Notes under the pieces: generated by a model
Database searches by the model: none
What the model was told of the DNA's origin: nothing
The model's input: only the letters and a program-made list of their open reading frames with translations
Program-made: the position numbers and the translations under genes
Shown here: positions 7,126 through 28,281 of the stretch, piece after piece
Position numbering within the stretch: position 1 is the stretch's first letter
How the letters are laid out: every line of letters begins with the position of its first letter
Source: a virus
Taxonomy: Duplodnaviria; Caudoviricetes
Length of the DNA: 64,000 bases
Direction: 5' to 3' (one strand)
IMG/VR virus record: IMGVR_UViG_3300033463_000093
Location: 8,099-72,098 of that record

Positions 7126-7299
7126 TTACAATTCTCGATACAGATACGGTCTTGGTCTTTTCGACTGTAGGAACTTGTTGTAGACCACGACGCAGTTGTC
7201 ATAGTGGCACGGTGTGCATATTGGTTCACGAATACCAGAAAGTCTGTTCGTTGCAACGACTACATGATAGACGTTTTTGTCAGTTTTTTTCTTACTCAT
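7126..7299 (-). CDS. small hypothetical protein (57 aa, below the ORF-track cutoff)
   Basis: manual translation MSKKKTDKNVYHVVVATNRLSG...YLYREL*; overlaps the upstream stop. Confidence 0.5.
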   Translation of the reverse strand: MSKKKTDKNVYHVVVATNRLSGIREPICTPCHYDNCVVVYNKFLQSKRPRPYLYREL

Positions 7300-8201: not shown

Positions 8202-8947
8202 TTCTGCACCTCCTTATACCTTTTGTTCATCGCGTCCTTGTATGGAGCATAGTTGTGCAGTCCTGGGACCTGGCTGTGTATCTTCTGCAAGGTCTCTATG
8301 TCCTTCGCGCCGTTGATGTCAGGGAGAAGCTCGAGCAATGCGTTCTCAAGCTCTTCCTTATCGAACAGGATTCCCTGCGGGTCCTGTTGTTTTGGTGCTG
8401 CTTTTGCCTTTGTGGATTTTGCAGGCTTTGGTGTAGCAGGTGCAGGAGCTGCATCTTGAATCGGGTCTTCGGGAAGATCTTCTCCGGCGTAAATGTATAG
8501 GCCAAGCCCGAACATGGCAAGATTCTTGACAAGGCAGCGCATAATCGTTTTGTTGATATCGAACATCGTAGCAGCCTGTACGGTCTTTGTTACATACTGA
8601 TTCTTTTTGAAGTCCCATACCTGATACTGATATGCCTGCCTGCGCATCGCCTTATTAGCCCCGTCCATTACAGGCAGCCACATCTCATGCGTCTGTCCGT
8701 TGATGGTGACCGTCGTCATGCACATCAGGCCGAAATCGGCATCCTCAATGTACGGACAGTTCCTCTCGTCCCTATAGATGGAGTATTCTGCATTGGGATA
8801 AAGCTTCTTTACCTCGGCCCATGCCCAAGGCCAACTCAAATAAGTGAGCTCTTTGTTACCTCCCGTTGGCTTCTTTTCCGTGTGTCCATTTACATTTATT
8901 GCACTCAGCTGGGCGAACACACTTTTAATCGTAGATTCTTTACTCAT
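8198..8947 (-). CDS. DUF1071 / Sak3-like single-strand annealing protein
   Basis: 'LTYLSWPWAW', 'MWLPVMDGANK', 'MRCLVKNLAMFGLGLYIYAGEDLP'. Confidence 0.85.
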   Translation of the reverse strand: MSKESTIKSVFAQLSAINVNGHTEKKPTGGNKELTYLSWPWAWAEVKKLYPNAEYSIYRDERNCPYIEDADFGLMCMTTVTINGQTHEMWLPVMDGANKAMRRQAYQYQVWDFKKNQYVTKTVQAATMFDINKTIMRCLVKNLAMFGLGLYIYAGEDLPEDPIQDAAPAPATPKPAKSTKAKAAPKQQDPQGILFDKEELENALLELLPDINGAKDIETLQKIHSQVPGLHNYAPYKDAMNKRYKEVQK

Positions 8948-8967
8948 AATGTAAAAATTTTTAATTA

Positions 8968-9273
8968 TCACTTCCCTTTAAGGAATATAGATCCGTGCTT
9001 TTGCTCGAAGTCGCGGATTGACTGGCTTGTCCTGCCGTGTTCTGCCACATACTCGAGCCATTCTTTCTTACGGATGCGTCCGTCGCCCTTGCCAGCATTC
9101 TCAAGGTGCGGGTCCATTCTCCACGAGTTGCAGTATTCCGACGGATGCGTCGGCTTCCTGATGAGTGTGCAGAGACGCTCCTTCTCACTCTTGAACTCCT
9201 TGAACATACAGGAGGCGCAGCACACCACGATGCTGACTCCGAATCCGTTCTTAACTGTCTGTTTTTCTGTCAT
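8968..9273 (-). CDS. Cys-rich hypothetical protein
   Basis: ORF track; CCASC motif. Confidence 0.65.
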   Translation of the reverse strand: MTEKQTVKNGFGVSIVVCCASCMFKEFKSEKERLCTLIRKPTHPSEYCNSWRMDPHLENAGKGDGRIRKKEWLEYVAEHGRTSQSIRDFEQKHGSIFLKGK

Positions 9274-10020: not shown

Positions 10021-10138
10021 TGTGCAGGAAGGGAGACTCGAACTCCCGTATCAGGACTTCAATTATGGCGAAGGAAATAAATGAATCTTATCAACTGACG
10101 TATGTCGCCTGACACGTTCTGCCTTTCGGACTTCCTGC
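10021..10138 (-). ncRNA. tRNA-like element with intact acceptor stem and T-arm and an expanded anticodon loop
   Basis: GCAGGAA/TTCCTGC acceptor; GGGAG-TTCGAGT-CTCCC T-arm; TGTCAGG/CCTGATA stem enclosing ~50 nt. Confidence 0.5.
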
Positions 10139-11154: not shown

Positions 11155-12114
11155 ATGGATAAGAAAGAACGCTTTAATAAGGCGTACGGCTTCTTAAAAT
11201 ACGAAGGAGTCATAAAGAAACAGGAGGACGTGGCCAGGGCGATGGGCGCCTCTCCCTCAAACGTATCGAGCGCCCTGAAGGGAAGGGAGGCCGTGCTCAC
11301 GGACAACTTCCTGATGCGCTTTGCGAATGCCTTCAAGCAGATATCACTGACATGGCTCCTGAACGAGGAAGGGCCGATGTTGACTGTCGTGCCTGAGTTC
11401 AAGGACGAGAACATGCCGCAGGTGCTTGAGGGCAACGCTGACAAGGACGTCGTCGCAGAGCAGAGCAAGATGACCGAGAGGATCAGGAGTCTCATACACG
11501 AGAAAGGACACCTCCCCAAGACGTTCGCGCTTGAGGCGAACATAGAGGTCTCTCTGTTCCTTCGCAAGATGAAGGGAGACATCGTATGGTCTGTTGCCGA
11601 CGTACACAAGATATGTGATGCGTTCCGTGTCAGGAAGAGCTGGCTCGTCGACGGTGACGGACAGAAGTACCGACTGCCGCAGGAGGTGCTGGAGACCATA
11701 CCCGCACGGTCTAACAACGCGCGCGTAGGCGTACCTTATTTTAACGTGGACTTCGAAATGGGCTACGACGTCATGATAAACGACCAGACGACGAACCCCG
11801 AGTACATGATAAACTTTTTCCCATACAACAAGGCCGACTGCTGGTGCAACGCACGGGGCGACTCCATGCACCCGACGATATCCAGCGGTGACCTCATCGC
11901 CATCAAGGAGGTGCGCGACCCGATGTCCTGCCTCATCAGCGGTGAGATATACGCCATCGTCACGACGAACGACATGCGTACCATCAAGCGTGTGCGAGAC
12001 AACGGGGAGACGGTCACCCTTATCCCAGATAACAAGGACTATCCGGAGCAGACCATATCAAAGTCGTTGATACTGAAGGTTTACAGGGTGCTCGGGAGCA
12101 TGAAGACTTTCTGA
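11155..12114 (+). CDS. cI: CI/LexA-like repressor with S24 autopeptidase domain
   Basis: N-terminal HTH (KQEDVARAMGASPSNVSSAL), second HTH-like block, S24 'ARGDSMHPTISSGD' and 'RTIKRV'. Confidence 0.9.
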   Translation: MDKKERFNKAYGFLKYEGVIKKQEDVARAMGASPSNVSSALKGREAVLTDNFLMRFANAFKQISLTWLLNEEGPMLTVVPEFKDENMPQVLEGNADKDVVAEQSKMTERIRSLIHEKGHLPKTFALEANIEVSLFLRKMKGDIVWSVADVHKICDAFRVRKSWLVDGDGQKYRLPQEVLETIPARSNNARVGVPYFNVDFEMGYDVMINDQTTNPEYMINFFPYNKADCWCNARGDSMHPTISSGDLIAIKEVRDPMSCLISGEIYAIVTTNDMRTIKRVRDNGETVTLIPDNKDYPEQTISKSLILKVYRVLGSMKTF

Positions 12115-13570: not shown

Positions 13571-13598
13571 CCTTACCAATCCTTACCGGCGCCTTACC
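13553..13598. repeat. 10-bp inverted repeat with 8-bp spacer plus two extra CCTTACC repeats
   Basis: ATTGGTAAGG-TCATTTAG-CCTTACCAAT; CCTTACC at 13571, 13581, 13592. Confidence 0.6.
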
Positions 13599-13908
13599 GA
13601 TGGGGCTGTTCCGCCCCACCCTCTTCACATTCCCTGAGCTTTTCCTTGAGCCATTCTATGTGGGCGCTGAGGCGCCTGCACTCGCGCCTTTTCTCGACAA
13701 GCTTCTCGTAATAGGCGTCTCTCGACACCTGTGCCTTTGCAAGCCTGTCGCCCTGAGCCTCTATCTTCTGCTCAAGCGACCTGGCATAGGCTGCGAGGCG
13801 GTCGTTCTGTTCGAGCAGCCATCTGTAGTGCTCGATGATGTGCTTCATCCGCTGCTCGTAGGGCAGGTCGTCCTGCGGCCTGCGCCTGGATCCTGTTTCA
13901 ATGTTCAT
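13594..13908 (-). CDS. coiled-coil hypothetical protein
   Basis: start re-called at MNIETGS, just after the recombinase stop. Confidence 0.6.
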   Translation of the reverse strand: MNIETGSRRRPQDDLPYEQRMKHIIEHYRWLLEQNDRLAAYARSLEQKIEAQGDRLAKAQVSRDAYYEKLVEKRRECRRLSAHIEWLKEKLRECEEGGAEQPHR

Positions 13909-14873: not shown

Positions 14874-14881
14874 ATCCGGTG

Positions 14882-14889
14882 CAAATTTA
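14882..14889 (-). promoter_or_regulatory. -7 promoter box of second recombinase (near-leaderless)
   Basis: TAAATTTG ends 9 nt upstream of the ATG at 14873. Confidence 0.6.
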
Positions 14890-14924
14890 ATAATATTATT
14901 TTAAATACATGAAAATTCGGTTGT

Positions 14925-14960
14925 AAAAAGTGAGGCGGAGGGGACTTCACACCCCTCCCG
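14925..14960 (-). terminator. probable intrinsic terminator of the leftward accessory array
   Basis: GGAGGGG/CCCCTCC stem followed by a T-run on the minus strand. Confidence 0.45.
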
Positions 14961-15002
14961 TGGCCGATTCGGACGGCACAGCCCCCAGTGGTGAGACACC
15001 GT

Positions 15003-15332: not shown

Positions 15333-15791
15333 TCAGTGCCACTCTGTGTAGCATGCGTCCATGTTGTCCGCCATTGATTCGATGATTTCCTCGATCTCGT
15401 CCTGCGAGAGGTCTTCCTCCTTGCGGCCTTCGCCCTCGTCCTCAAGATAGGAGTCGATGTCTTGCTTGTAGATGCGGTAGCGCCGGAAGTGCTCCATGTC
15501 GGGCACTCCCATTATCTTCATTGCACACTCGTTGCTGCATGCGTATCCGCAGCAGTCGAGATACCATCCCTCCTCCATGATGGCTCCGCAGTTGGAGCAT
15601 ATACGGCACGAATCCACGTCGAGCCATGATATGAGGATTTCCTCACGGGACTTTCTGGATCCTTCCTCGATAGCCTTTTCGACGGCAGGGAAGACGGTTC
15701 CGAAGGCTTCGTCTCCGACAAGCTGTCTGACCTTTTCCTTGATTTCGTCATAGCAATGAGCAGAAACCATTTTGTTAAGTTTTTTTTCCAT
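15333..15791 (-). CDS. Zn-finger-containing hypothetical protein
   Basis: CRICSNCG...CCGYACSNEC. Confidence 0.7.
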   Translation of the reverse strand: MEKKLNKMVSAHCYDEIKEKVRQLVGDEAFGTVFPAVEKAIEEGSRKSREEILISWLDVDSCRICSNCGAIMEEGWYLDCCGYACSNECAMKIMGVPDMEHFRRYRIYKQDIDSYLEDEGEGRKEEDLSQDEIEEIIESMADNMDACYTEWH

Positions 15792-15856
15792 ATTCGTTTA
15801 TTTTTTGGGGTTAATGGTATCATCTTCCTGATGTCAGGAAAATGATAAAGAGACTT

Positions 15857-16486
15857 CTACCAGCTCATGATGACGAACATCCTGTCTTTGTCGTCGGTCC
15901 ACTTGTCCAGCATCTCCGCGCACTCGGTGATGATTTTCTTCACCTGATATGTGTAGTATGCCTTGTCGTAGTCCGTTCCTCCGAAGAAGAAACCGCCCTG
16001 CGTCGGAAGTTTTGCATACGAAAAGCCTTCGTCGCGCTGCGACAGCACATCGGTGGCCGTATGGATGAGCGTGATCAGGTCTGACTTGTAGACCTCGCAC
16101 ATCTCGTTCTCAAGCCTGTCGCTGAAATAGTTGTAGACGCTGTTCACCTTTCTGAAGTACCCTGCGAGCGGCTTCGAGAACCACTCCCAGTTTATGCTTT
16201 CGTACCATCTCCTTGCCTCCTCGATTGTCTTGGCCTTCTCAAGCGGCTCGAGCTCGAACTCGCAGTCGAAATACTCGCCAAGCAGTTCATGGCGAAGACT
16301 CATGATCTGGTACTCAGCATTCTTGTCGTCCATCTCGGCAAGCCTGCCCTCGATGAACTCTTTCGTTACCTTTGCGAAGTCCCTGTCCTGTTTTTCGTTC
16401 ACAGACTCATAGTACTTCTCAACACTCTCGTTCTTTCTCATCTTCCGTGGATGATGAATCAACTTGAAATAAATATCCAATCCCAT
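15857..16486 (-). CDS. conserved phage hypothetical protein
   Basis: 'MGLDIY...GYFRKVNSVYNYF...LPTQGGFFFGGTDYD...MSW' pattern. Confidence 0.75.
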   Translation of the reverse strand: MGLDIYFKLIHHPRKMRKNESVEKYYESVNEKQDRDFAKVTKEFIEGRLAEMDDKNAEYQIMSLRHELLGEYFDCEFELEPLEKAKTIEEARRWYESINWEWFSKPLAGYFRKVNSVYNYFSDRLENEMCEVYKSDLITLIHTATDVLSQRDEGFSYAKLPTQGGFFFGGTDYDKAYYTYQVKKIITECAEMLDKWTDDKDRMFVIMSW

Positions 16487-16563
16487 AATTGTAAAGTTTT
16501 TTAATCGGTCATTTTAAAGAAATAGTTACAAGCCCCCTCATCGTTAAAAAGGTGGTGAAGAGA

Positions 16564-16968
16564 CTAAATGTTAAATGTTTCGCGTAGCCAGTTGTCAAGT
16601 TCGTAAGCGTCGATATGGAATTTCTTCCATGCCTCCCACGACTTTTTGCATCCGTCATAAGCGTCAATACATTCGGATACTTTTTCGAAGCCGAACTCAG
16701 CCTGAAAGTCGTCGATGTTCTTGCAGTTGTCATAATCAATGGCTTCGGACAGGAACATTTCAAACGCCTCTATGAGCTCTTTTCTTACCATCGGCTTGTG
16801 CGTCCTCGTGTTACCCCAGAAATCGAACGTGTAAACGGCCTCGTTTGCTGATACCGTAACTTTAAAGTGCTTCTTTTTGAATCCGTGACTCCACTTAGGG
16901 CAGTCTTCACCTACAAAACGCGCTTTTACGCATATAGGTGTGTCGCTGTAGTTGATGATTGTTGCCAT
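16564..16968 (-). CDS. hypothetical protein
   Basis: ORF track; ends in TAGTCT element. Confidence 0.7.
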   Translation of the reverse strand: MATIINYSDTPICVKARFVGEDCPKWSHGFKKKHFKVTVSANEAVYTFDFWGNTRTHKPMVRKELIEAFEMFLSEAIDYDNCKNIDDFQAEFGFEKVSECIDAYDGCKKSWEAWKKFHIDAYELDNWLRETFNI

Positions 16969-17025
16969 AATATATCTGTTTGGTTAAATAATTGTAAGCC
17001 CGTCGTTTCCGATGGGCTTTGGAGA

Positions 17026-17865
17026 CTAAACGAACCACAGGTTTTTGTCGGAACGCTCGACATAGAAGAGATGCGTGTACGTCTTTCCCGTCACATAGGC
17101 GTTCCATGCCTTGATGACAAGTTTCTGAACGACGAATCCTGGCAGTCTCTTGAGGAGGCTCCTCTTGCTCTCGTTGAGCTTCTGCTGAAGGAGCGTGATG
17201 ACGCTGTGCGACGGATTCTTGAGACCCTCGATCTCGTTGAAGAACGACATGACGGTGTCTTCCGGATGCTTCTTCTCAAGGATGAGGTAGGACGAGATGC
17301 CGCCGATGTCTGAGCCCTTGAGCAGCTTCCATCTTCCCTTTGCAGCAATCTTCGACGATGTCTTCCCGATGTTGTTCCAGAAGTCCTTTTTCGAGTTGAA
17401 CTCGTCTTCGATCTCTGCATTCGACGTTCTGTCTGAGCCGGCCATCTCATTCATGACAGTGTAGTTGTTCTTCAGCTTTAAGAACCTGCGTATCGAAGCC
17501 GAGACGAGCGCAGCGTTTGGCACGTCCTGTACATAGAGGATGTCTGCCGCAGTCCTGTTCTTTCCGTTGTCCATGATGATGTAGGACTCGTTTGGCATGT
17601 TGCGGCACACGATGCACGGCATGGGCACGTTCGACCTTACGCAAGCGGTTAGGCGGTGCTGTCCGTTGAGCAGGATGCCGTTCGTGCCGAAGCAGATGGC
17701 GTCGTTGCTGAGAACGAACAGATGGTTCTTCAGCAGCCTCTGATAGAGACTGACTGTTTTCTCGTCAAGTTTCCTGTTCGAGATGTTGTGGGTTAGAAAC
17801 TCCTGTGCCATTGATGGCGTTACAAGCATTACCTGCGTGCTGATTCTTTCAAATTCTTTTTCCAT
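17026..17865 (-). CDS. ParB/Srx-like N-terminal domain protein
   Basis: 'VTPSMAQEFL..N..NRKL' and 'LLNGQHRLTA' motif. Confidence 0.7.
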   Translation of the reverse strand: MEKEFERISTQVMLVTPSMAQEFLTHNISNRKLDEKTVSLYQRLLKNHLFVLSNDAICFGTNGILLNGQHRLTACVRSNVPMPCIVCRNMPNESYIIMDNGKNRTAADILYVQDVPNAALVSASIRRFLKLKNNYTVMNEMAGSDRTSNAEIEDEFNSKKDFWNNIGKTSSKIAAKGRWKLLKGSDIGGISSYLILEKKHPEDTVMSFFNEIEGLKNPSHSVITLLQQKLNESKRSLLKRLPGFVVQKLVIKAWNAYVTGKTYTHLFYVERSDKNLWFV

Positions 17866-17919
17866 ACTCTTATAATTTTAGGGGGTTAAACGTAGAGGGC
17901 GGATGTCCGCCCTAAAAGA

Positions 17920-18522
17920 CTAAGGCTTCAGATGCGCAAACCAGGGAAGGGCGCCCGACCCCCAGGACATGAAGTCAATCCGGTTGTCTCCTGCGATTTT
18001 CTCACAGTCGAGTTCCGTGTCGATTTTGACGTAGTTCGACAGTTCCTCTTCCGAATACGGGACAAACTTCCGAACTCCGTCCACCTCTTTCCACTCTCCA
18101 CTCAGATTGTCATCGTTTGTGATGTCATCGAAAGCCTTTCCGTTGAAGAGATACATGGCGTTTTCGTCGTCGCAGCTGACAGCGCACAAGCCCACCTTGC
18201 GGGCCTCGTCAAAGCACTCGCGTAGACGCTTGATGACAACCCGTTGCTCAAGGCTGAGCCGGAAGATGGAGTCGAGAACGACCGTTTTCACGAGCGTGTT
18301 CTTCTTCAGTTTCTCTACCTGCTCGTCGGTCAGATTCTTGTAGACGTGACAGAACCTGTGTTCCGGATAGATCTGCGCAATACCATACATTACAAGGTTG
18401 TCTGCGTCAGGACCGAGGATGTGCCCAAGCAGATTATGCTTGTTGTCGTAGCACTCGAACAGCTCGTTGTCGTTGAGCCATTCGTCTAAATCCTTTTGTG
18501 TTCTGAATTGTAATACTTTCAT
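17920..18522 (-). CDS. hypothetical protein
   Basis: start re-called at MKVLQFRTQ, downstream of array leader element. Confidence 0.7.
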   Translation of the reverse strand: MKVLQFRTQKDLDEWLNDNELFECYDNKHNLLGHILGPDADNLVMYGIAQIYPEHRFCHVYKNLTDEQVEKLKKNTLVKTVVLDSIFRLSLEQRVVIKRLRECFDEARKVGLCAVSCDDENAMYLFNGKAFDDITNDDNLSGEWKEVDGVRKFVPYSEEELSNYVKIDTELDCEKIAGDNRIDFMSWGSGALPWFAHLKP

Positions 18523-18578
18523 ACTCTGTAAAATAAATTGGTGAATAATTGTGCCGTGTCCTTTGCACGGCTTTGAGA

Positions 18579-18725
18579 CTAATGTTTTCTGTTTACAAGC
18601 CACGGCCACCTGATATAGGCGAGGTAATACACCGCAGCGAAGACAATGATGACGGGGAGAGTCCACACCCCGCAGAAGACGGAGACGAAGAATACCGCCC
18701 AGAGATTCTTGGACAGCTCACTCAT
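18579..18725 (-). CDS. 48-aa membrane peptide
   Basis: manual translation MSELSKNLWAVFFVSVFCGVWTLPVIIVFAAVYYLAYIRWPWLVNRKH*; ATGA overlap; ends in TAGTCT. Confidence 0.65.
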   Translation of the reverse strand: MSELSKNLWAVFFVSVFCGVWTLPVIIVFAAVYYLAYIRWPWLVNRKH

Positions 18726-19039
18726 GACACGAAACGTTGGAAATTCTCTTTGCGGAAGCTGCGGAACTGCTGCTTCACCGTGTCATAGTAAGTCACCAGC
18801 TCTGGGTTCGGCTCACGATTCGTCGTGTCCTTGATGAGAGGCAGGATAATCTCGTCCTGTAACGTTCCGAAAGCCTGACGAACCGTGCCGTCCTTCTTGA
18901 CGAAGTAGAACTCGACGATGCGGCTCTTCATCTGCTTTACACACTCGGCAATCTGCTGTGCCGTAATCTCGCACTCGGCCATAGGTCGGCCAGTGATCTC
19001 GTTGATGCGCTTGGCATCGCTCATTACTTGTGCTGACAT
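18722..19039 (-). CDS. SH3-fold / WYL-like protein (DUF2693 type)
   Basis: 'VEFYFVKKDGTVRQAFGTL...TYYDTVKQQFRSFR'. Confidence 0.75.
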   Translation of the reverse strand: MSAQVMSDAKRINEITGRPMAECEITAQQIAECVKQMKSRIVEFYFVKKDGTVRQAFGTLQDEIILPLIKDTTNREPNPELVTYYDTVKQQFRSFRKENFQRFVS

Positions 19040-19514
19040 ACGCTTAAAATGTAAACATTTTGTTTTTTATTTTAACTAATACATGATACATGTCTTCGAG
19101 AAGTTCTCCGTCACTTAGTCCGGACTCTTCAGGGCACTCAAAGTCTGTCAACACCCTGCAAATTTCATCATACAATTCTTTATTATCCATATCTTTTTAA
19201 TTTGGTTAGACAATAGAACTCCCATGGCTGGGAGTTAAAGACTACATGACATAATTGGACAGATAACTTTCCTTGAGATTGTACTTTTCGCACAACTCAA
19301 CCAATAGCAGGAACTTTCCTTTTTTGGTCGAGAAGGCCAGAACGTCTTCTGTATTCGGAAATGGCGTTGTCCCTGTTAGTTATCATTTTGTCATACTCGC
19401 GAGAAGATTCGCGATACATTTGATGAATAGAATACTTTGGAATTGAAAACCATGACATACTTTTTCCTTTCTTTTAGGGGTTAATAATTGTGCCCTCACA
19501 TAGAGGGCGGAAGA

Positions 19515-19937
19515 CTAACGGTAGACGATTACCATAGACGGAGCAGGCGCAGCGTTCTTCTGACTACCGAACTTCAGACGTCCACGGACAAAACGGATTT
19601 CAGCCTTGCCGTACACATAGTCATGGAACCATGCCGTGTCTGTCCTTGCAAAAACAAGGGCTACGACGGTGGTATTAGATTTCTGCGATTCCTCATAGCA
19701 TTTCCTTATCCATGCTCCGACCTTGCGACCATAAGGGGGATTGCAGAATACGACATTACCGCTCCAGTCCTGCACGAGTCCGTCATCATCGGGCGTGTAG
19801 AATTTGCTACACTTCGCGTTTGACGGCAAAGCGCAGGGGTCGAGGGTGAAATGAAACTCCTCGTTTAGTTTGTCGTAGAAATCCTGTGGCGTCGACCATA
19901 CCTCGTCTTTTGACGAGAACATCAAATCTGTATTCAT
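19515..19937 (-). CDS. phage DNA N6-adenine methyltransferase
   Basis: 'WSTPQDFY...FTLDPCA', catalytic NPPY, 'ARTDTAWF'; start re-called at MNTDLMF. Confidence 0.9.
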   Translation of the reverse strand: MNTDLMFSSKDEVWSTPQDFYDKLNEEFHFTLDPCALPSNAKCSKFYTPDDDGLVQDWSGNVVFCNPPYGRKVGAWIRKCYEESQKSNTTVVALVFARTDTAWFHDYVYGKAEIRFVRGRLKFGSQKNAAPAPSMVIVYR

Positions 19938-20019
19938 ACTCCTGAAAATTTTGGTTAGACAATAGAAAGGGCGGGCAGTATCGCTCTGCCTCACCCCAAC
20001 CAACTAAAACTACGAAACA

Positions 20020-20562
20020 TCATTTGATAGCACTGACGATGGTTCTGATGTCGTTGAGCATCAGGGACGGGAGCTGCTTCTCGACAGGAATGTCAAGGTA
20101 CTCAATAGCCTCGGGGAACTCCTCCTCAACCTTCTTGACGGTGCGCAGCTGCATGAGGGCGTTGAACACCTTGTCGCGGAAATCATTCCTTTCCTTTATT
20201 AAATTGTTCTGTTCGTTTCTGACACTTTCGACAGACTCGAAATCCTTTGCATCGACCTTGATGTAGTTGCAGGAATAAGGAACGGGAATGCTTGTCGTGG
20301 CGGGAATGTAGCCGTACACATGCTGATGTCCATCGCTGTCAGTGGTAAGTTTCTGCACAACAGCGTTGTTGTTTGAACCGAGATAGTCGCCATACTCTTT
20401 GGCGCACGCAAGGACAGGCGCAGGAACGTACTTGATGACGAGCTTCGTCACTTTGTCGGTCAACTCCTGGTTTTTTCTCTCGATCTTACTTGAAAAAGCC
20501 TTCTCTGCCATAACGTCGGCTGCATCATAAGCCATCGTCTTTGTAATTCTAATACTTGCCAT
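20020..20562 (-). CDS. hypothetical protein, possibly Nmad5-like
   Basis: 'IRITKTMA...TVKKVEEEFPEA' resemblance; next to MTase. Confidence 0.6.
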   Translation of the reverse strand: MASIRITKTMAYDAADVMAEKAFSSKIERKNQELTDKVTKLVIKYVPAPVLACAKEYGDYLGSNNNAVVQKLTTDSDGHQHVYGYIPATTSIPVPYSCNYIKVDAKDFESVESVRNEQNNLIKERNDFRDKVFNALMQLRTVKKVEEEFPEAIEYLDIPVEKQLPSLMLNDIRTIVSAIK

Positions 20563-20619
20563 ATTCTTAAAATTTTTGGGGTTAATAATTGCGGCAGCCG
20601 TGCAAGACTGCCTTAGAGA

Positions 20620-21552
20620 CTAAGCATCAGGATTTTCCTTCTTAAACTTTTTCAGCTCACGGGGAGATGGTTTGAGCGCAATGCATTCGTTTGATTCGTT
20701 ACCGCAGTAGTCGTAGAACGAAATGCCAGTGTCTGTGAGAAGAAGGTCATTGATAGAAGGACAGCTTCCTCCTTGACTTGGACATATATCGTAGCCCATA
20801 TAGGCTACGTCGGCATTGTTCAGGGCGTAGACGTTGCCACCATTAGAACGATCCCATATAAACGAGAGACCAGACTCTTTTGCCTTGTCAAAAGCATTCT
20901 TGAGCGCAAGGAGAAGATAAGACTGCTCTTTCGTAGGTCTGAGACGCAGTTCTGTACCTCGCTCTAAAAGTACCTCTCCGTCCTCGTCGATGACCTCGTA
21001 CTCGTTGTTGTCATACGCAATCTTTCTGCTTGACCAAAACTCGTCGGGAAGGCTGCCTTCGTCAAGGCTCCAGCTGTAGTCTTTGTTTAAGATTGCAACA
21101 ATCTGAAGCGGAATGCTGATGGCTTGGCCGTTCTCGAATATCCAAGCCTCAAGATAGACGTTGGACGTACCCTTTTCTTCGTCGGGATCGCATACGTGAC
21201 AGTTGCATCCACAAAGACGCTTCCTGTCCGCAAGTTTGAGCATATCCAACGTAGAATAATTGTTCTTGTGCATCTGAAGGTTGTTTTCAAAATCAGAGAT
21301 TGTAAGATAAAGATTATAGTCTTCTTGAATGACATAATCCTTTCCATAGGCATCCGTTAGACGCGATACAACACTCTGATCCTTCAAGTTGACTACTACT
21401 CCTTCCACTTTTACGTGAACAAGTTTTCCGTCGGAATGAAGATAACCGCAAGTTTCGCATGTGTAGAACGAATACTTCACATTGGGCACTTTTGCCTCGT
21501 CGGCAGAAACTCTCTTGTAAACACTCTTAATTTTGCTTGATTTTTTTACCAT
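20620..21552 (-). CDS. hypothetical protein
   Basis: 310 aa ORF between two array elements. Confidence 0.75.
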   Translation of the reverse strand: MVKKSSKIKSVYKRVSADEAKVPNVKYSFYTCETCGYLHSDGKLVHVKVEGVVVNLKDQSVVSRLTDAYGKDYVIQEDYNLYLTISDFENNLQMHKNNYSTLDMLKLADRKRLCGCNCHVCDPDEEKGTSNVYLEAWIFENGQAISIPLQIVAILNKDYSWSLDEGSLPDEFWSSRKIAYDNNEYEVIDEDGEVLLERGTELRLRPTKEQSYLLLALKNAFDKAKESGLSFIWDRSNGGNVYALNNADVAYMGYDICPSQGGSCPSINDLLLTDTGISFYDYCGNESNECIALKPSPRELKKFKKENPDA

Positions 21553-21613
21553 AATTCTTTTATTTTAAAGGGTTAAACATAAATCGTGCCGTGTCCTTTG
21601 CACGGCTTTAAGA

Positions 21614-21760
21614 CTACTTGGTGTCGTCAATCCATTCCGGCTTGAGCCAGGCGACGAGCACCCAGAAAACTACGGCTGCTATTGCAGCCCAAATCATAAG
21701 AGGGCCCGCGAAGAGCAGGCAGAGAAGAATGAGCCACGCCCATTTTGCAAGTTCTGTCAT
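21614..21760 (-). CDS. 48-aa membrane peptide
   Basis: manual translation MTELAKWAWLILLCLLFAGPLMIWAAIAAVVFWVLVAWLKPEWIDDTK*; ends in TAGTCT. Confidence 0.65.
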   Translation of the reverse strand: MTELAKWAWLILLCLLFAGPLMIWAAIAAVVFWVLVAWLKPEWIDDTK

Positions 21761-21821
21761 AAATCAAACGTTATTTGGGGGTTTGGTTAGTTGAAGGAAG
21801 GCCACACGAGGTGGCCGTTCC

Positions 21822-23033
21822 CTAAGAGACTTTCTTCAGGGAGACGCTGTCGAAGGACAGGTCTCCGACGGCGGCGTCGTCATCATCGTCGTCGTTGTTG
21901 AGTCCGTTCCAATACGTCTCGTTGTACAGGGCGTCCTTGACCTCATAGTAGATGTCGGAAATCTGGTTCTCACACTCCCTGGCGGAGAAGCAGATGCACG
22001 CCATGAACTCGTCCTTGTAGGACGCCATGATGCGGTCCAAGGACAGCGTGGGGTCGATGCCGAGCAGCGTCTCCATGGTGCAGACGTCCTGGTCGTAGTA
22101 GCCTCCGTCGAAGTAGTAGTCCCAGTCGTCTTCATCCCAGTCCGATTGAGACCCTTGTGCCGTCTGGATATACGATGACTTTTGTCCTGTCTGGACGGAC
22201 GGCTCTTTGTTTTCTCCGGAATACCATTTGGATCCTCCGAACCAGTGATAGCCATAGCGACCGTAGCCGTAGTCCCAGTCGCCATAGCCACCCTCGAAAG
22301 GGTACACGTCAGTGCACGTCTCCACGATGTGCTCCACGAAGTTAAGGCAGTTCTCGAGCTCGGACAAAACCGTGATCTCCTGGTCGCTGTGCGCCTCGTA
22401 GTAGCCGCACGACAGGTTCAGGCACGAGATGCCGACACCACGATCGACGAGCTCGCCGACGTCCGTGACAGTGCCGTGGTCCTTCTTGTAGCCGTAAGCC
22501 TCGTAGCCGATGGCGTTGATGAAGTCCTCGGAGCATACGCTGCCGCAGAACATGGCGGTGATGAGGTCGCTGCTGCCCTTCCTGTCAGGCTGGACGATGA
22601 ACCGGCAGTCCTTGAAGAACTCAAGGTCCACCTCTCCAGAGCCCTTGCAGCCTATCTCCTCGCCTACGAAGAACGCCACTTTCATCACGTCGAACTTCCT
22701 GAGAAGCTCAAGACAGATGAAGATGCCGTTCTTGTCGTCGGCTCCGAGACCCTGCTGCTCGTGCATCTTCGGGGAGTAGCCTATGACGTCTCCGCCAATC
22801 TCCACGACCGTGAAGTCCTTGGAGTGTGCGTCCTGCACCTGGTCCATGTGTGCTGCCAGGCACGGGTACGTCTTCGACTGTCCCTTCGTGATGAGGAGGT
22901 TTCCGTATGCGTCAGTGACGATCTCTTCTGCCCCGCACTCTGCCGCCACCTTGCGCAGGTAGCGACGCATCTTCTTCTCGCTACCGCTCCTTGAATGGAT
23001 GCGGTAGAGCTGGAATAATAATTCTTTGTTCAT
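21822..23033 (-). CDS. M28/M20-family Zn metallopeptidase-like protein with acidic tail
   Basis: 'AAHMDQV', 'GADDKNG', 'VGEEIG', 'QPDR', 'GYYEAHS'. Confidence 0.85.
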   Translation of the reverse strand: MNKELLFQLYRIHSRSGSEKKMRRYLRKVAAECGAEEIVTDAYGNLLITKGQSKTYPCLAAHMDQVQDAHSKDFTVVEIGGDVIGYSPKMHEQQGLGADDKNGIFICLELLRKFDVMKVAFFVGEEIGCKGSGEVDLEFFKDCRFIVQPDRKGSSDLITAMFCGSVCSEDFINAIGYEAYGYKKDHGTVTDVGELVDRGVGISCLNLSCGYYEAHSDQEITVLSELENCLNFVEHIVETCTDVYPFEGGYGDWDYGYGRYGYHWFGGSKWYSGENKEPSVQTGQKSSYIQTAQGSQSDWDEDDWDYYFDGGYYDQDVCTMETLLGIDPTLSLDRIMASYKDEFMACICFSARECENQISDIYYEVKDALYNETYWNGLNNDDDDDDAAVGDLSFDSVSLKKVS

Positions 23034-23095
23034 ATTCGTAAAAATTTAGTTGGTTAGAAAATGTGCGGCACGCCATGCAAGGCATGCCAAAAAGA

Positions 23096-24922
23096 CTAAG
23101 CGGCTTTCGCGATGAACTCCCAGTGTACCGGCTCGCCGTCGTACAGGACCTTGTCAATGACATGAAGCCCGTTGTACTCTGTGGCCATCCTGTACTCGAC
23201 AAGATTGTTGAACGATTCGATAGAGATGGAGGATTTGAGGAACCTCTCGAAATAACGATTCCACTCATAAACGGTGATGACGTCATCGGCGTCCTCGAAC
23301 CACTCTCCGTCATAGGCCGACAATACATGGCCGTTGTCCCGGTGCCACTTTTCTTCGGCCTCGTCGAGGCAGTCCCCGCAGCAGTAGGTCTCTCCTGTAA
23401 GGTCTGAGTAGAATCCCTCTCCGTCGACGAAGAACTCTTCGCAGCGGTCGCAGCAGCAGAGGCCGTTTCCTTCCGGATCTTCCGCATTATATCCAGCGTA
23501 GAAATACTCGCCGTTGACCTCAATGCAGTCTTCCTCGAAACACGTCTCCCAATGGTAGCAGCCTCGTCCGTCATAGACACGGGCGTCCGCAACCTGGTGG
23601 TGGTAGAAATAGTCGTCGCGTGTCTCCACATAGTAGGCGTCATCCTCGTAGATGTATTCTTGGTTGTACTCGGACCAGACGTCGCTGCTGTGGTCGTTGA
23701 AGTTGAGCTCGCTGTCCGTGACGTCAAGGTCGATGTCGCCACATCCATAGTTGTCGGCACGCTGAGCGTCGTAGTCGAAGCTCTTGAACGAGTCCTGATA
23801 GGACAGCGTGTCTCCGTTCTTAAGATGGCAGTCGATCCAGAACATCTTGTCCTCGAGGGAGTTTCCCTCGCAGTCCACGAACATTTTCTTTGCTCCGCAG
23901 CTCGCTCCAACGGCCTTGTGTCCGTCGATGTGCCCGCCCTGTATGAGGGCGGAGACAAGCTGACGCTGCAAGGACGGGTCGCAGGACTTGGAATACTGGC
24001 GCTCTGCCAGCCTCCAGATCCTGTCGCTGCCCACCTCGTGCACCTCGGTAAAGACGATGCAGCGTGCGTAGATCAGGCCGTTCTTGTCAGCCAGGTACGC
24101 AGCCTTCGCCTTCACAGCGTCACGATAGAACGTCCACTGGTCGTCTCCGACCATGCAGGAGCCGAAGCTGCCGGAATCCTCGTCGTAGCCGGCACAGCTG
24201 TGTCGGTCGTAGATGGCCTCGAAGTTGTCGTCGACATGGAGCTCGTATTCCGTGTCTCCGATGCATCTCCTGGCATGGTCTATCCATTCGGCCACGAACT
24301 CCTCGGACATCCACCGGTTTATCTGCTCGGGGAGATTTTCCGTGATGACGTTGCATGACAGGATGTGGTTGAACATCTTGCCCGCCTTCATCTTGAAAAC
24401 ACGACCCTTCTCGATGTTGCGGTAGCGGATGGCGTTGAGCGTGCCGTCCTCGCAGAGACCTTCCATAGAGTCGGTCTCGAAGGAGTTGGAATGGAAGTAA
24501 CGTCCGTTGAGCTTCAGATAATGGATGGAACCGGGAATCCTCAGCTCTTCATCCTCGAGCAGGCTGTAGACGTAAGTCTTCAGCGTCGGCAGCGTCTTGC
24601 ACGTCAGAGGCGAGAATTTTTCTGAGTAACGATAATGATTGTAACTCATCTGCTCGTTGAGTCTGATGAGAATGCGACCCATAAGTCTCTCGCCGGTAAA
24701 ATTACAATTAGTGTTGCATGACTCCCTGCGCCGCCTGTAGTGTCTCTTCATCTCGGCCAATCCCTGAATGAAAATGTACCTGATGTGAGCCTTGAGGAAT
24801 CTCCTGTCCTTGTACAGGGCGAGGAGAATCTTGTTCTTGCGCGACTTGACTCCATTGCCGTGTTCGACAATACCGAATAGTTCCTTGAACTCTTCGTAGT
24901 CCTTAAAACTGTAGTAAAGCAT
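23096..24922 (-). CDS. large phage protein with GSCM and ARCIVF motifs and Cys/Tyr/Asp-rich C-terminus
   Basis: start re-called at MLYYSFKDY; CxxC pairs in C-terminal part. Confidence 0.8.
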   Translation of the reverse strand: MLYYSFKDYEEFKELFGIVEHGNGVKSRKNKILLALYKDRRFLKAHIRYIFIQGLAEMKRHYRRRRESCNTNCNFTGERLMGRILIRLNEQMSYNHYRYSEKFSPLTCKTLPTLKTYVYSLLEDEELRIPGSIHYLKLNGRYFHSNSFETDSMEGLCEDGTLNAIRYRNIEKGRVFKMKAGKMFNHILSCNVITENLPEQINRWMSEEFVAEWIDHARRCIGDTEYELHVDDNFEAIYDRHSCAGYDEDSGSFGSCMVGDDQWTFYRDAVKAKAAYLADKNGLIYARCIVFTEVHEVGSDRIWRLAERQYSKSCDPSLQRQLVSALIQGGHIDGHKAVGASCGAKKMFVDCEGNSLEDKMFWIDCHLKNGDTLSYQDSFKSFDYDAQRADNYGCGDIDLDVTDSELNFNDHSSDVWSEYNQEYIYEDDAYYVETRDDYFYHHQVADARVYDGRGCYHWETCFEEDCIEVNGEYFYAGYNAEDPEGNGLCCCDRCEEFFVDGEGFYSDLTGETYCCGDCLDEAEEKWHRDNGHVLSAYDGEWFEDADDVITVYEWNRYFERFLKSSISIESFNNLVEYRMATEYNGLHVIDKVLYDGEPVHWEFIAKAA

Positions 24923-24984
24923 ATAAATCCTTTCTTTTAGTTGGTGAATAATGTTGTCGTGGCTGCACACGCAGCCGTAGAGAC

Positions 24985-25272
24985 TCATCTGGCGTCCGTC
25001 TGGAGAAGACGGAGATCGTAGAGATCGTAGAGATTGTAGAGATTGTCGTCCTCCGTTACGCTGCACGAGAAATGGTACATACTCTCAGTTATGCGCAGGT
25101 CTTTGAACACCTCCTCGTCAGAGTCGGGATCGTCATCCCTCGCCGTACTGAGCGCAAGCTCGCGCTTCTTCTCATAGAACTTTGCAGCGTCCTCCATGTC
25201 GAGGAAGCTGTCGGAAGTCACATACACATCTCCATGAAACACATGGACATAAACTACATTGTACACTTTCAT
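24985..25272 (-). CDS. hypothetical protein
   Basis: ORF track. Confidence 0.65.
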   Translation of the reverse strand: MKVYNVVYVHVFHGDVYVTSDSFLDMEDAAKFYEKKRELALSTARDDDPDSDEEVFKDLRITESMYHFSCSVTEDDNLYNLYDLYDLRLLQTDAR

Positions 25273-25311
25273 AATTGTAAGAGTTGGTTATTAGCGGAGC
25301 CGTTCGGCTCC

Positions 25312-25449
25312 TCAGAGACTCCTGTACACATTGTACGATACATAAACACATACCGCCGTCACGATCAAGGCAGACACGCATGACGCATAGAGCCATGCAA
25401 ACACAGACATCGCCACCTCTGGCACTGCCGAGAAAATAATCTTCTTCAT
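25312..25449 (-). CDS. 45-aa membrane peptide
   Basis: manual translation MKKIIFSAVPEVAMSVFAWLYASCVSALIVTAVCVYVSYNVYRSL*. Confidence 0.55.
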   Translation of the reverse strand: MKKIIFSAVPEVAMSVFAWLYASCVSALIVTAVCVYVSYNVYRSL

Positions 25450-25522
25450 ATCGTTCAATATTGGTTAAAAAGTCAGCACAGGCAGGTGAACGAACGAAAA
25501 ACCCCACCCATGCCGTAAGAGA

Positions 25523-25708
25523 CTAAGCGAACCTGCTCTCGTAGTTCGACACGTTCAGCTTCATGCGACGTGCGAACGCCTGAGCCCATCCACGATAGAC
25601 ATAGAGATTGGACACTCTGCGCCAGCGGCCGTCCGAATCGGTCAGCCTGGCCACGCACCATCCACCCTTGTCGTGGACAATCTTGTAGATACCTTTTCCG
25701 TAAATCAT
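25523..25708 (-). CDS. small hypothetical protein
   Basis: ORF track; ends in TAGTCT. Confidence 0.65.
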   Translation of the reverse strand: MIYGKGIYKIVHDKGGWCVARLTDSDGRWRRVSNLYVYRGWAQAFARRMKLNVSNYESRFA

Positions 25709-25755
25709 AACAATTCAGGTTGGTTAAACATAGCGGGAGCTTCTGCTCCCTGAGA

Positions 25756-26022
25756 CTAATACTCGATGAGGACGTCTCTCGTCCGCTCGTTGATGAACTT
25801 GCAGTGGGAGATGTCACGGAAGTCGATGCCGATTTCCCGGAAAAACTCCTCGTAGCGGCTTGTCAGCCACGGGCTCTCCTTGAGCATGCGCAGGGCGGTG
25901 AAAAACGTGGTGACTTTCTCGACGGTCATCCTCACAGTCTTGTGAAGGCCGTTCTTCAACGTGACGATACACTTGAAAATTGCGGTCGTCTTCAGTTCCG
26001 GATTGATAATTCTTTTTCTCAT
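25756..26022 (-). CDS. hypothetical protein
   Basis: start re-called at MRKRIINPEL. Confidence 0.65.
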   Translation of the reverse strand: MRKRIINPELKTTAIFKCIVTLKNGLHKTVRMTVEKVTTFFTALRMLKESPWLTSRYEEFFREIGIDFRDISHCKFINERTRDVLIEY

Positions 26023-26077
26023 AATCGTACTTTTTAGTTGGTGAAACAATCGTACTCCCCAGACGGGGAGCTGGAGA

Positions 26078-26293
26078 CTATCCCTCTGCCATCGTACGCT
26101 CGATGCGCTCTATCTCCTCGGTGTAGTCGCGCAGGAACTTCCTGCCTCTGTCGGAATCGTTCAGCCAGATGCCGAGCCATACGAAATACACCATACCAGC
26201 CGTGTTTATCCACAGGCTACCCTCGCTGAAGACGGCCACGACGGGCACCACTGCGAGGAACGCACACAAGTGCAGCAAAATTCTCTTTCTCAT
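26078..26293 (-). CDS. small two-TM membrane protein
   Basis: two hydrophobic stretches; ends in TAGTCT. Confidence 0.65.
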   Translation of the reverse strand: MRKRILLHLCAFLAVVPVVAVFSEGSLWINTAGMVYFVWLGIWLNDSDRGRKFLRDYTEEIERIERTMAEG

Positions 26294-27121
26294 AATCGTA
26301 CTTTTTTCAAGTTGGTTAAAATTCGTAGACGGGAGCAGGTCTCCCTGACATCCCGCCCGTAGTCTCTCCCACTTCGTTCTTTATCGTACTCGCTTCTCCT
26401 GGGACTCTCCGTTTCCGGACATCTTTGCCCCAACCGTGGGATGTGGCAGTTTTGTGAATCGTACTGCCAAACCATTCTTTATCGTTCGGGTCTTGCACCC
26501 TAAATATCTTTCGTTGCAGCCGTTCTCCGTACTTGCGTACTCGTTCGGCCCGACCATCCTAAAGTGATTAAATGTGTTGTCGTACTCGTCGACGGGAACC
26601 ACCACGACAGAATCGCTCATCTGCCGTACTGCACAGGGCAGTCGTTCTCGGCCAGTAGCCAGCCGTTATTATCGTACTCGCTCACGCGAGGAATAATAGA
26701 CTAAAAGAATATGATTTATTCATGATAAGCCCTCGCCGTGCATTCAGCGGGTGGGAATATCCTCTCACGTCACCGGCTAATAAGACTCAGTCGTTCTCTT
26801 GCTCTCGCTCAACGCCTATCCGTTCACCTGACCCACATCTGCATCTTGACTTGCGACCGCTATCTCTCTCTCAGCGCTCCGTTCCGTATCGTACTTGGCT
26901 ACGCATCCTGCGCTGGTCGCCCGTGGCTTCGGTTCGCCGTTCACGGAACACGTCCGTCACGGCTCAGCCTGCGTATCGGCTGCGGCTCCTCCTACTCCGT
27001 ACAGAGTACGTCATCGGTCTCCGCATACGCTCTAACCGCTTGAATGCTGTTCGTCCGGGCTTGCAACCGGCATCCCGAAGGATGGCCACATTACAGGGAG
27101 TCACACTCCCTGTGCTCTGTG

Positions 27122-27237: not shown

Positions 27238-27528
27238 TCAGTATTCTATCGTGTTGTTCATCAGCCCGTTCCAGAATCCCATGAGGTCCTTCACGCTGCT
27301 GTCGTTCGTGGTCAGGCAGATGTCGCTCGCCATGTTGTTCTTCTTGATGTATTCCGTATTGAGCTCCACCATTTTGCTGACAATCGTGTCAGCGTATTTC
27401 CGTTCGAGGGATTCGGGGATGCTCACGGGAAATTGCTCGTAACAGATTCCAGGGTACGGGATTTCCCTGCGGTAGCGCAACAATATCCAGATTGTTCGCT
27501 CGTTCCGTTTGTTCGTTCGTTTACTCAT
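27238..27528 (-). CDS. hypothetical protein
   Basis: ORF track; GAACGATATG start context shared with neighbour. Confidence 0.6.
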   Translation of the reverse strand: MSKRTNKRNERTIWILLRYRREIPYPGICYEQFPVSIPESLERKYADTIVSKMVELNTEYIKKNNMASDICLTTNDSSVKDLMGFWNGLMNNTIEY

Positions 27529-27716
27529 ATCGTTCGTTCGTTCATATCGTTCGGGCTGTTCGTTCGGCTCGCCCGTTTCTCCGTCACGTCTGCATTTATA
27601 GAGGCTTGTGACTCTCAGGGGATCAGATCCCTGGCTGCATTACCGGAAAATAAACACAAACAAGGAGAGGGACAGGTTTTTCCTGTCCTCTCCTTATTAG
27701 GTCGGTGTGTGCTATC

Positions 27717-28106: not shown

Positions 28107-28173
28107 AATTGAAAAATTTTTTGTGTCCCCTCTTGTGGGTGGTAGGACTTGCACCCTTATTGATTTCTTTATG

Positions 28174-28181
28174 CAAAGTTA
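28174..28181 (-). promoter_or_regulatory. -7 promoter box for leftward accessory array
   Basis: TAACTTTG on minus strand. Confidence 0.6.
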
Positions 28182-28281
28182 CGAAAATATTTCGATATTT
28201 GCAATACTTTTGATATATTTATGTCGATATAATTTTCCGGTTTGTACAAAAATATTTATCAAACGTCGACGAAAAGAGTAT

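Follow-up and report, generated by a model that had tools for sequence, protein, structure and literature searches.

What is the role of an element that recurs between successive genes along one strand of a phage genome? The question is raised by a 64-kb window (the whole stretch of DNA analyzed here, positions 8,099 to 72,098 of the 72,098-bp virus record IMGVR_UViG_3300033463_000093). On its minus strand, a common linker was present at 16 of the 21 boundaries that separate genes from 26.1 to 15.8 kb, and all copies had the same orientation. An earlier note on this DNA had offered two explanations: either the linkers are sites at which a neighboring tyrosine recombinase gains, loses or shuffles single-gene cassettes, or they are repeated processing or translation signals in a polycistronic transcript. 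We favor, with moderate confidence, a reading in which the linker is an RNA-level intercistronic signal of a long accessory operon that doubles as a short-homology recombination site, and in which it represents the Bacteroidales counterpart of the promoter early stem-loop (PeSL) units of T4-type phages.

In the direction of transcription, the linker started with a stop codon overlapping the core (T)AGTCTY. This was followed, after 0–3 nt, by a G + C hairpin of 5–13 bp and variable sequence, a stretch of ~8 nt (typically RCTATTRTY), a TAACC or TCACC box, and an A-rich leader of 12–20 nt ending in GAAT(T)ATG, at the start codon of the next gene. The spacing between AGTCTY and TAACC varied from 21 to 45 nt. 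One additional boundary (20020 to 19937) had the hairpin and TAACC, without AGTCTY. The earlier note had described the motif correctly: all 17 RAGACT coordinates it gave were present in the sequence, the shared core, hairpin and TAACC leader were recovered at 16 boundaries when the minus strand was read, TAGTCT formed the stop context in 12 copies, and at 21831 and 25320 the core fell within the final codons ahead of the stop. The two copies described as atypical were a degenerate one at 16565, with a weak hairpin and no TAACC, and a long variant at 25524 (linker 3 in Table 1). Long variants resembling the latter were found in four related phages (L124 at 8340, L123 at 9912, L135 at 9921 and L163 at about 5525; relatives are given here by their L numbers).

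Linkers were searched for with regular expressions and reversed-pattern controls, together with a hand-checked alignment of one orthologous hairpin, the variable stems not being alignable by MAFFT. RAGACT by itself was not enriched over the whole window (62 copies, ~80 expected). On the sense (minus) strand, 21 of the 32 AGTCTY copies of the window fell inside the 11-kb stretch, which represents 17% of its length. Along the 72-kb genome, the array strand held 11 copies of the strict composite AGTCTY-N12–40-TAACC, all of them within the array, and the reversed control gave 0 matches. Three bacterial host-type genomes contained the composite at background level only.

The linkers were widespread among related phages. 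We found 128 unique AGTCTY-type linkers across 15 phages, whose 608-amino-acid (aa) array proteins were 45–60% identical to that of the window. The stop codon overlapped the core in 94 of 117 family linkers; in 79 of these it started at −1, which puts the TAG within the core, and in the other 15 at −2. TAG was the stop codon in 89 of the 117, versus 12 of 46 long open reading frames (ORFs) outside the array in the window phage. In five whole phage records the composite was confined to one co-oriented array of 8–12 kb. Two more distant clades (35–40% identity) kept the hairpin, (T)CTATTAACCAA, the A-rich leader and AGAATTATG, and lacked AGTCTY; they had TAA or TGA stops, whose distance varied. 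In relatives further removed, units were few and had true T-runs after the hairpin, and the 608-aa and peptidase genes abutted (TGAttATG). The persistence of hairpin and TAACC leader without AGTCTY in the distant clades indicates that these two form the deep module, AGTCTY being the addition of one clade.

Hairpin, leader and transcription of the array

The hairpins were more stable than shuffled sequence (mean z −3.5), with 83 out of 94 below −2. The sense fold was the more stable one in 56 cases and the antisense fold in 29 (p = 3.6e-4), and G·U pairs accounted for 54 of the 650 hairpin pairs (8%). For the hairpin of linker 6, located after the 608-aa gene, nine phages were aligned: 96% of the cells were paired, four pairs had changed on both sides, and two U·G pairs were conserved. 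None of 500 shuffles reached the observed value. The compensatory changes and the strand-specific stability indicate selection for the hairpin structure on a single strand, compatible with either RNA or one of the DNA strands. At a loose threshold, Rfam gave no known RNA family at the linkers.

The leaders had the features of translation initiation regions. Among 94 leaders, A was present at −14 to −11 in 59–73, at −6 in 67 and at −3 in 69. These positions coincide with those at which A is a positive determinant of translation initiation in a Bacteroidia species that ignores Shine-Dalgarno sequences (−14 to −11, −6 and −3; PMC6847099). By eye, neither base-pairing between TAACC and the 16S rRNA 3' end nor a palindrome around TAACC gave a consistent fit.

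Host-type promoters were restricted to the ends of the array unit. On the minus strand, TAnnTTTG boxes were found only at 28254, at 28181 (with a −33 TTG) and at 14889 (recombinase gene), and there was none in sense orientation between 28181 and 14889, that is, none in any linker. Sigma-54 (GG-N10-GC), extracytoplasmic function (ECF)-type and sigma-70 readings of the linkers were compared by eye and none fitted consistently; a sigma-70 promoter scan equaled the shuffled background. A U-rich tail was found, by a lax rule, at 4 of the 16 hairpins, and the regional total equaled that of shuffled sequence. The hairpin tails typically began with RC-TATT, with no U-run directly after the stem, which is not the layout of an intrinsic terminator (a G + C hairpin with a U-run immediately behind it). 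Clear T-runs were present at the hairpins that bound the unit on either side (~27.65 kb and ~14.95 kb); the former region (27650–27695, minus strand) contained a strong 12-bp hairpin and a long T-rich tail after the 129-aa gene. With few U-tails inside and T-runs at both ends, the internal hairpins resemble terminators with a disabled U-tract.

These results bear on the alternative that the linkers are PeSL units in the literal sense, the hairpin being a terminator or attenuator, the TAACC region a promoter for a phage or alternative sigma factor, and each cassette its own transcription unit. Promoter/terminator units of this kind flank swappable ORFs in T4-type phages (PMC2839356). The hairpins of the more distant relatives, followed by TTCTATT or T6–8 runs and preceded by an A-tract, do look like terminators, a T-run is present in the final linker, next to the recombinase, and the conservation of TAACC exceeds what a translation signal would explain. 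However, the Bacteroidetes −7 box TAnnTTTG, present at the recombinase and at the operon head, is absent from all linkers. The conserved A at −14 is only ~20–25 nt away from the hairpin, so that any −33 box would fall in the variable hairpin, and the AGTCTY–TAACC spacing is variable. U-rich tails are few, and no sigma factor or RNA polymerase was recognized among the ~35 ORFs scanned, the genome search not being exhaustive. The literal PeSL model fails the promoter test for the host sigma factor, and as a whole we consider it doubtful.

Self-cleaving ribozymes pointed toward processing of the transcript. Besides the Twister-P5 ribozyme upstream of the array in the window, we found one upstream of the arrays in L124 (6190–6255, 46.3 bits) and L135 (7953–8018, 48.3 bits). 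The window ribozyme and the candidate second twister were intergenic, at the head of the array-strand operon, with twisters in equivalent positions in three phages. Being located between cistrons, they suggest that cutting of the transcript is part of the operon design.

Cassette exchange and the second recombinase

The gene content of the arrays was mosaic between phages, with the 71-aa, 88-aa, 608-aa, peptidase, 105-aa and recombinase genes as collinear anchors. Several gene families were found at differing relative positions in different phages. Within two groups of 93–98% identical distant-clade phages, we recognized ~12 distinct clean indels. In 6 of them both junctions were within linkers, with 12–62 nt shared between the two ends, and every overlap that was read at the nucleotide level contained a TAACC or AAACC box. 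Between L163 and L183 (93–96% identical) one cassette was replaced, with both junctions in CTATTAACCAAT, and one small ORF was replaced between its ATG and a twister ribozyme (twister boundary placed by eye). In the comparison of L188 with L183 (80–90% identical), two shared blocks started at the TAACC box and one exactly at AGTCTC, and a 48-aa peptide ORF was deleted precisely from the leader end to AGTCTC. In the prophage that carries this deletion (L188 13114–13274, compared with L183 13122–13282), the AGTCTC core and the hairpin remained, joined to the preceding leader. In L124/L169 the junction was located a few codons ahead of the stop.

Traces of exchange were also seen within arrays. 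Linkers 8 and 12 of the window were identical at 29 of 30 positions of core and hairpin, although the 48-aa peptide genes in front of them had diverged, and the identity ended right after the hairpin. The loop of this peptide-gene hairpin was AAAAGGA in L188 and CAAAGGA in other phages, and its stem had compensatory changes. In L164, and twice in the window, the CAAAGGA-loop hairpin was located behind the peptide gene. In L124 it came directly after the peptidase, with no peptide ORF, and in L123 it followed a 54-aa ORF, whose relation to the peptide gene is not established. These junctions show that the linkers are where cassettes are exchanged, with the TAACC box as the most frequent crossover point and any of the conserved blocks able to act as one. 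On whether gene content changes exactly at the core, as the earlier note had asked, the answer was partly yes: in pairs of 80–98% identity the breakpoints were inside linkers, but mostly at TAACC and only in some cases at AGTCTY.

The distal end of the array was marked by a gene for a 318-aa tyrosine recombinase. The protein was of a generic type, with a Pfam PF00589 match and no close solved structure. It reached 27–42 bits against Xer families, far below their cut-offs of 220–335 (best NCBIfam score 42 vs 220), and did not match the integron-integrase model TIGR02249. A homologue (38–63% identity) was present at the distal array end in every element-rich relative with enough downstream DNA (at least 14 phages), and absent within 10 kb in seven element-poor relatives. 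Among 301 Bacteroidales genomes, the recombinase was found only in one, which was already known. The order array, recombinase, small ORF and convergent arm-type integrase was shared by at least four relatives (L182, L183/L184, L185 and L188). In these, the arm-type integrases had 407–413 aa and were located just outside the recombinase; the small-ORF position was occupied by ORFs of 102 and 83 aa in L185 and L188, respectively. A role of the 318-aa protein as the prophage-edge integrase, suggested by provirus G306, was dropped, given the arm-type integrase outside it in four relatives. The recombinase is conserved and distinct from the edge integrase.

The recombinase is also no “orphan”, as it had first been called: it has a conserved small downstream ORF, its own conserved promoter and a fixed gene order in at least four relatives. 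Its promoter block ATAATATTATTAAATTTGCACCGGATATG was conserved at the nucleotide level in relatives and included a perfect 14-bp palindrome, TAATAATATTATTA (14880–14915, minus strand), which overlapped the −7 box. The palindrome was kept in L124, L164, L182, L183 and L185 at the nucleotide level, though the recombinases were only 57–63% identical, and from its sequence it looks like an operator.

In the integron-like alternative, this recombinase would excise and insert cassettes at the linker, its site being the TAACC box or the folded hairpin strand. Next to a separate arm-type integrase at the prophage edge, the 318-aa enzyme seems spare, and it accompanied the arrays wherever enough DNA was available. 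Further, the TAACCA hexamer was within most crossovers, some overlaps had only 12–14 nt, and the hairpin is strand-specific, a property that it shares with attC sites. Bacteroidales are also known to have arrays in which a recombinase is associated with repeated intergenic sequences (rAID-1, bioRxiv 10.1101/471110). However, crossovers occurred also at AGTCTY, at an ATG, at an ORF end and at a twister, and thus not at one site. The AGTCTY and TAACC flanks neither paired nor covaried: pairing of the attC R''/R' type equaled the expectation for independence at all 10 positions tested, and there was no inverted-repeat core around TAACC. The enzyme itself scored far below the Xer cut-offs and did not match the integron-integrase model, and its gene is promoter-distal and co-oriented with the array. 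No attI-like site with a cassette promoter was found. Presence and absence of the recombinase follow the phylogeny, so that its co-occurrence with arrays amounts to roughly one or two independent events. In addition, accessory-gene regions commonly adjoin phage lysogeny modules, which also counts against the integron-like alternative.

From the recombination model of the earlier note, the cassette-like gain, loss and swapping of genes was retained; a fixed crossover site, paired flanks and a recombinase of the integron or Xer type were not found. The overlaps of 12–14 nt and the constant presence of the recombinase keep an integron-like mechanism alive, at a low probability. It is likewise unlikely that the recombinase, its small partner ORF and the TAACC linkers constitute a phage-borne integron-like cassette system of Bacteroidales, perhaps operating on a folded single strand.

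For the linker as an intercistronic signal and short-homology site, we infer the following action. AGTCTY would provide or abut the stop codon of the upstream gene. The G + C hairpin would fold in the sense RNA and most likely protect or define the 3' end of the upstream cistron, or mark an endonuclease cut; with no U-run after the stem, it most likely does not end transcription. TAACC and the A-rich stretch would form the standard leader of the next gene, for hosts that do not use Shine-Dalgarno sequences. Recurring 15–25 times in one orientation, the TAACC box, AGTCTY and the start context would at the same time offer short-homology crossover points, through which single genes could be deleted, inserted, replaced and moved, both between and within related phages. 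The crossovers are probably made by the phage's own Sak annealing protein and exonuclease. The multiple crossover points, the non-pairing flanks, the missing inverted-repeat core, a recombinase outside the IntI family, and the phage's own Sak/exonuclease pair all fit short-homology recombination.

Several points weigh against this reading. The co-occurrence of the recombinase with the linker arrays is perfect. TAACC lies upstream of the known translation determinants and is very strongly conserved, beyond what these explain. The strong terminator at 27650–27695 separates the only recognizable promoter (28181) from the array, which puts in question the route of the polymerase into the array. 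Finally, several junction overlaps, with only 12–14 nt, are below the minimal segments for efficient pairing by RecA (31–34 bp) and Red-beta (23–27 bp) (PMC3945230).

Between the two explanations of the earlier note, an RNA signal on a polycistronic transcript fits better, with hairpin selection, leader, lack of an internal promoter, and ribozymes on its side, but its likeness to the RNase III sites of T7 is weak, because the stems have only 5–13 bp. That the linkers are sites for a specific host double-strand RNase, like those between the T7 early genes, is very improbable: the intercistronic position on one long transcript (as in T7, according to textbooks), the selection of the hairpins in sense RNA and the self-cleaving ribozymes, which would place transcript cutting within the design, would suit such an enzyme, but the stems fall short of the approximately two helical turns usual for RNase III substrates (textbook knowledge), and the conserved letters lie outside the stem, pointing to a single-strand-specific factor.

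The phage, its host and the flanks of the array

The window phage is temperate, siphovirus-like and infects a Prevotella/Bacteroidales host. A CI-type repressor (11155–12114) and an arm-type integrase (Table 1) represented the temperate lifestyle, and terminase and portal genes were found at 37–40.5 kb of the window. Relatives found via the 608-aa array protein came from Bacteroidales assemblies (Prevotella, Bacteroidaceae, Bacteroides, Muribaculaceae and Rikenellaceae), and one of them, L188, was a prophage of the isolate Prevotella sp. E2-28, whose genome is complete (CP091788.1, prophage at about 2.19–2.22 Mb). The Bacteroidales relatives and the E2-28 prophage point to a temperate phage of a Prevotella-like host.

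More than 1,300 homologues of the anchor gene were present in public data. The array had no megablast match in the GenBank phage collection, and an exact-protein look-up revealed no closer relatives of the window phage. A loose pattern, TAGTCTY-gap-ATTATTAACC, run over viral contigs gave mainly single chance matches, L073 being the only true relative. The 279-aa phrog_5931 protein was rejected as a route to relatives, its matches being high-GC, unrelated and without linker elements. Two distant-clade relatives, L146 (15121–17621) and L152 (14929–17428), encoded a reverse transcriptase (PF00078) and a neighbor of 333–336 aa near the distal array end, a locus which may be a diversity-generating retroelement.

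Table 1 Linkers and flanking features of the array, with positions in the window.
Feature	Position	Strand	Remarks
Promoter, host-type	28146–28215	−	−33 TTG, −7 TAACTTTG; only complete one upstream of the array on the minus strand; followed by 129-aa gene
Candidate second twister (type P1)	27581–27646	−	49.5 bits, below gathering threshold of 67.2; E 1e-8
Twister-P5 ribozyme	27055–27121	−	Rfam RF02684, 46.9 bits (gathering threshold 37.6); upstream of array
Head unit	26291–26352	−	hairpin, TTAACC, leader before first cassette, ATG 26293; no AGTCTY, because no ORF ends there
Linker 1	26020–26081	−	TAGTCTC, hairpin GCTCCCC/GGGGAGT, TCACC, leader, ATG 26022
Linker 2	25706–25759	−	TAGTCTC, hairpin, TAACC, ATG 25708
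Linker 3	25447–25526	−	long variant, extended imperfect hairpin
Linker 4	25270–25322	−	core in last codons (AGT CTC TGA), hairpin, TAACC, ATG 25272
Linker 5	24920–24987	−	TGAGTCTC, hairpin, TCACC, ATG 24922 of 608-aa gene
Linker 6	23031–23099	−	between 608-aa gene and peptidase gene; orthologous hairpin in 9 phages
Linker 7	21758–21833	−	core ahead of stop (AAA GTC TCT TAG), hairpin, TAACC, ATG 21760
Linker 8	21550–21617	−	after 48-aa membrane peptide, copy 1; hairpin GCCGTG-CAAAGGA-CACGGC
Linker 9	20560–20623	−	TAGTCTC, hairpin, ATTATTAACC, ATG 20562
Linker without AGTCTY	19935–20022	−	TGA, hairpin, TCTAACC, ATG 19937 of Dam-type methyltransferase gene
Linker 10	19456–19518	−	TAGTCTT, hairpin GCCCTC/GAGGGC, ATTATTAACC, ATG 19458
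Linker 11	19188–19245	−	TAGTCTT, hairpin, TCTAACC, ATG 19190; gene ending here frameshift-split at A-run
Linker 12	18520–18582	−	after 48-aa membrane peptide, copy 2
Linker 13	17863–17923	−	TAGTCTT, hairpin, TTTAACC, ATG 17865 of 279-aa phrog_5931 protein
Linker 14	16966–17029	−	TAGTCTC, hairpin, TTTAACC, ATG 16968
Linker 15	16484–16567	−	degenerate: TAGTCTC present, hairpin weak, TAACC absent
Linker 16	15789–15857	−	TAGAAGTCTC, 13-bp A/T-rich hairpin, TTAACC, ATG 15791
Array end	14874–15002	−	strong hairpins, terminator-like T-run, ACAACC box, 14-bp palindrome, −7 box TAAATTTG 8 nt before recombinase ATG
Tyrosine recombinase, 318 aa	13917–14873	−	distal array end
Small ORF, ~105 aa	13594–13909	−	8 nt past recombinase stop
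Arm-type integrase, 391 aa	12395–13570	+	convergent with recombinase
Recombination pair	7296–8971	−	RecE-like exonuclease 7296–8201; Sak-type single-strand annealing protein 8198–8971

The cargo of the array was mixed and included a Dam-type methyltransferase, an M42-like peptidase, an Nmad5-domain protein, the phrog_5931 protein and small membrane peptides. Many array proteins had no family match. The 279-aa protein, previously labeled ParB-like, matched no ParB family and belongs to phrog_5931, of unknown function. The 105-aa gene (19039–18722) was 76% identical to a gene of L124, and genes of the same size and position in L182, L183, L185 and L188 had a WYL_2 domain. At 19242–19458 (minus strand), a 53-aa ORF and an overlapping 45-codon open frame could be joined by a one-base shift at an A-run (~19330), giving a gene of ~70–75 aa that would end at the TAG inside AGTCTT. 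Judging from the sequence, the split is either a sequencing error or a slippery run.

At the array head, AGTACGA(T) and GAACGA(T) words were densely clustered in the non-coding leader (26300–27050 and 27400–27600, minus strand). The start context ...ACGAT(T/A)ATG replaced the usual AGAATTATG in the first two cassettes and in some of the head genes, and AGTACGAT was found also at the array heads of L123 and L124. At the other end, three direct CCTTACC repeats (13571–13600) lay between the recombinase operon and the convergent integrase gene, and may be integrase arm sites or part of attP. Further away, at 10023–10138 (minus strand), GGGAGTTCGAGTCTCCC resembled a tRNA T-arm; neither ARAGORN nor Rfam called a tRNA there, and the sequence may be related to attP.

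Comparison with known systems

Intercistronic hairpins that define or protect RNA ends are known from textbooks, as the RNase III sites of T7 and the repetitive extragenic palindromic (REP) elements of E. coli. The T7 sites are longer, irregular duplexes (~20 bp), a length which the linker stems did not reach. REP elements are conserved in the stem and spread around the chromosome, whereas in the linkers the stems vary and the flanks are conserved.

Among recombinase-associated arrays, rAID-1 (Ross et al., bioRxiv 10.1101/471110) occurs in the same bacterial order and, by its description, has a conserved XerD-like tyrosine recombinase beside many small, unrelated genes that are arrayed in a long row and separated by repetitive sequences. 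The general layout, recombinase plus array, resembles that of the window phage. The rAID-1 arrays are found on chromosomes or mobile elements, contain immunity genes and are preceded by their recombinase, whereas here it is downstream and the cargo does not consist of immunity genes.

With integrons, the arrays share co-oriented, apparently promoterless single-gene cassettes, hairpins of conserved structure and variable sequence with conserved flanks, and an adjacent tyrosine recombinase. They differ in that the linker flanks are non-complementary and the crossover is not at a fixed point. In addition, the integron integrase and attI are promoter-proximal and divergent, whereas here the recombinase is distal, co-oriented, under its own promoter and not of the IntI family. 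If the integron-like reading were true, the arrays would add a member borne by temperate phages to the hairpin-guided cassette platforms, the third after integrons and possibly rAID-1.

The closest counterparts are the PeSLs of T4-type phages (PMC2839356, Arbiol et al. 2010; PMC4122927, Comeau et al. 2014), for which short-homology recombination between neighboring units has been proposed. As in PeSLs, a composite unit fills the gap between stop and start, here at 16 of 21 boundaries, and the units are clustered in a variable region of accessory and orphan genes. Both have a stem-loop with G-T pairs, which in the linkers is under selection and has a U-rich tail in 4 of 16 cases, and in both, the units delimit the indels and replacements that distinguish close relatives. 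PeSLs hold a consensus sigma-70 promoter and a proven terminator, whereas the linkers have no host-type promoter and mostly no U-tract. Their conserved letters are AGTCTY and TAACC, their host lineage does not use Shine-Dalgarno sequences, and the phage is temperate and siphovirus-like. In this family of Bacteroidales phages from rumen and gut, an 11-kb accessory region would thus be kept both expressible and exchangeable, each gene coming ready with a stop codon, an RNA hairpin and the kind of leader that suits a host indifferent to Shine-Dalgarno sequences. Leader and hairpin could serve as intercistronic spacers for the engineering of Bacteroides and Prevotella. Under the favored reading, the PeSL idea would no longer be limited to T4-like coliphages, but would apply also to phages of an unrelated group with hosts in another phylum.

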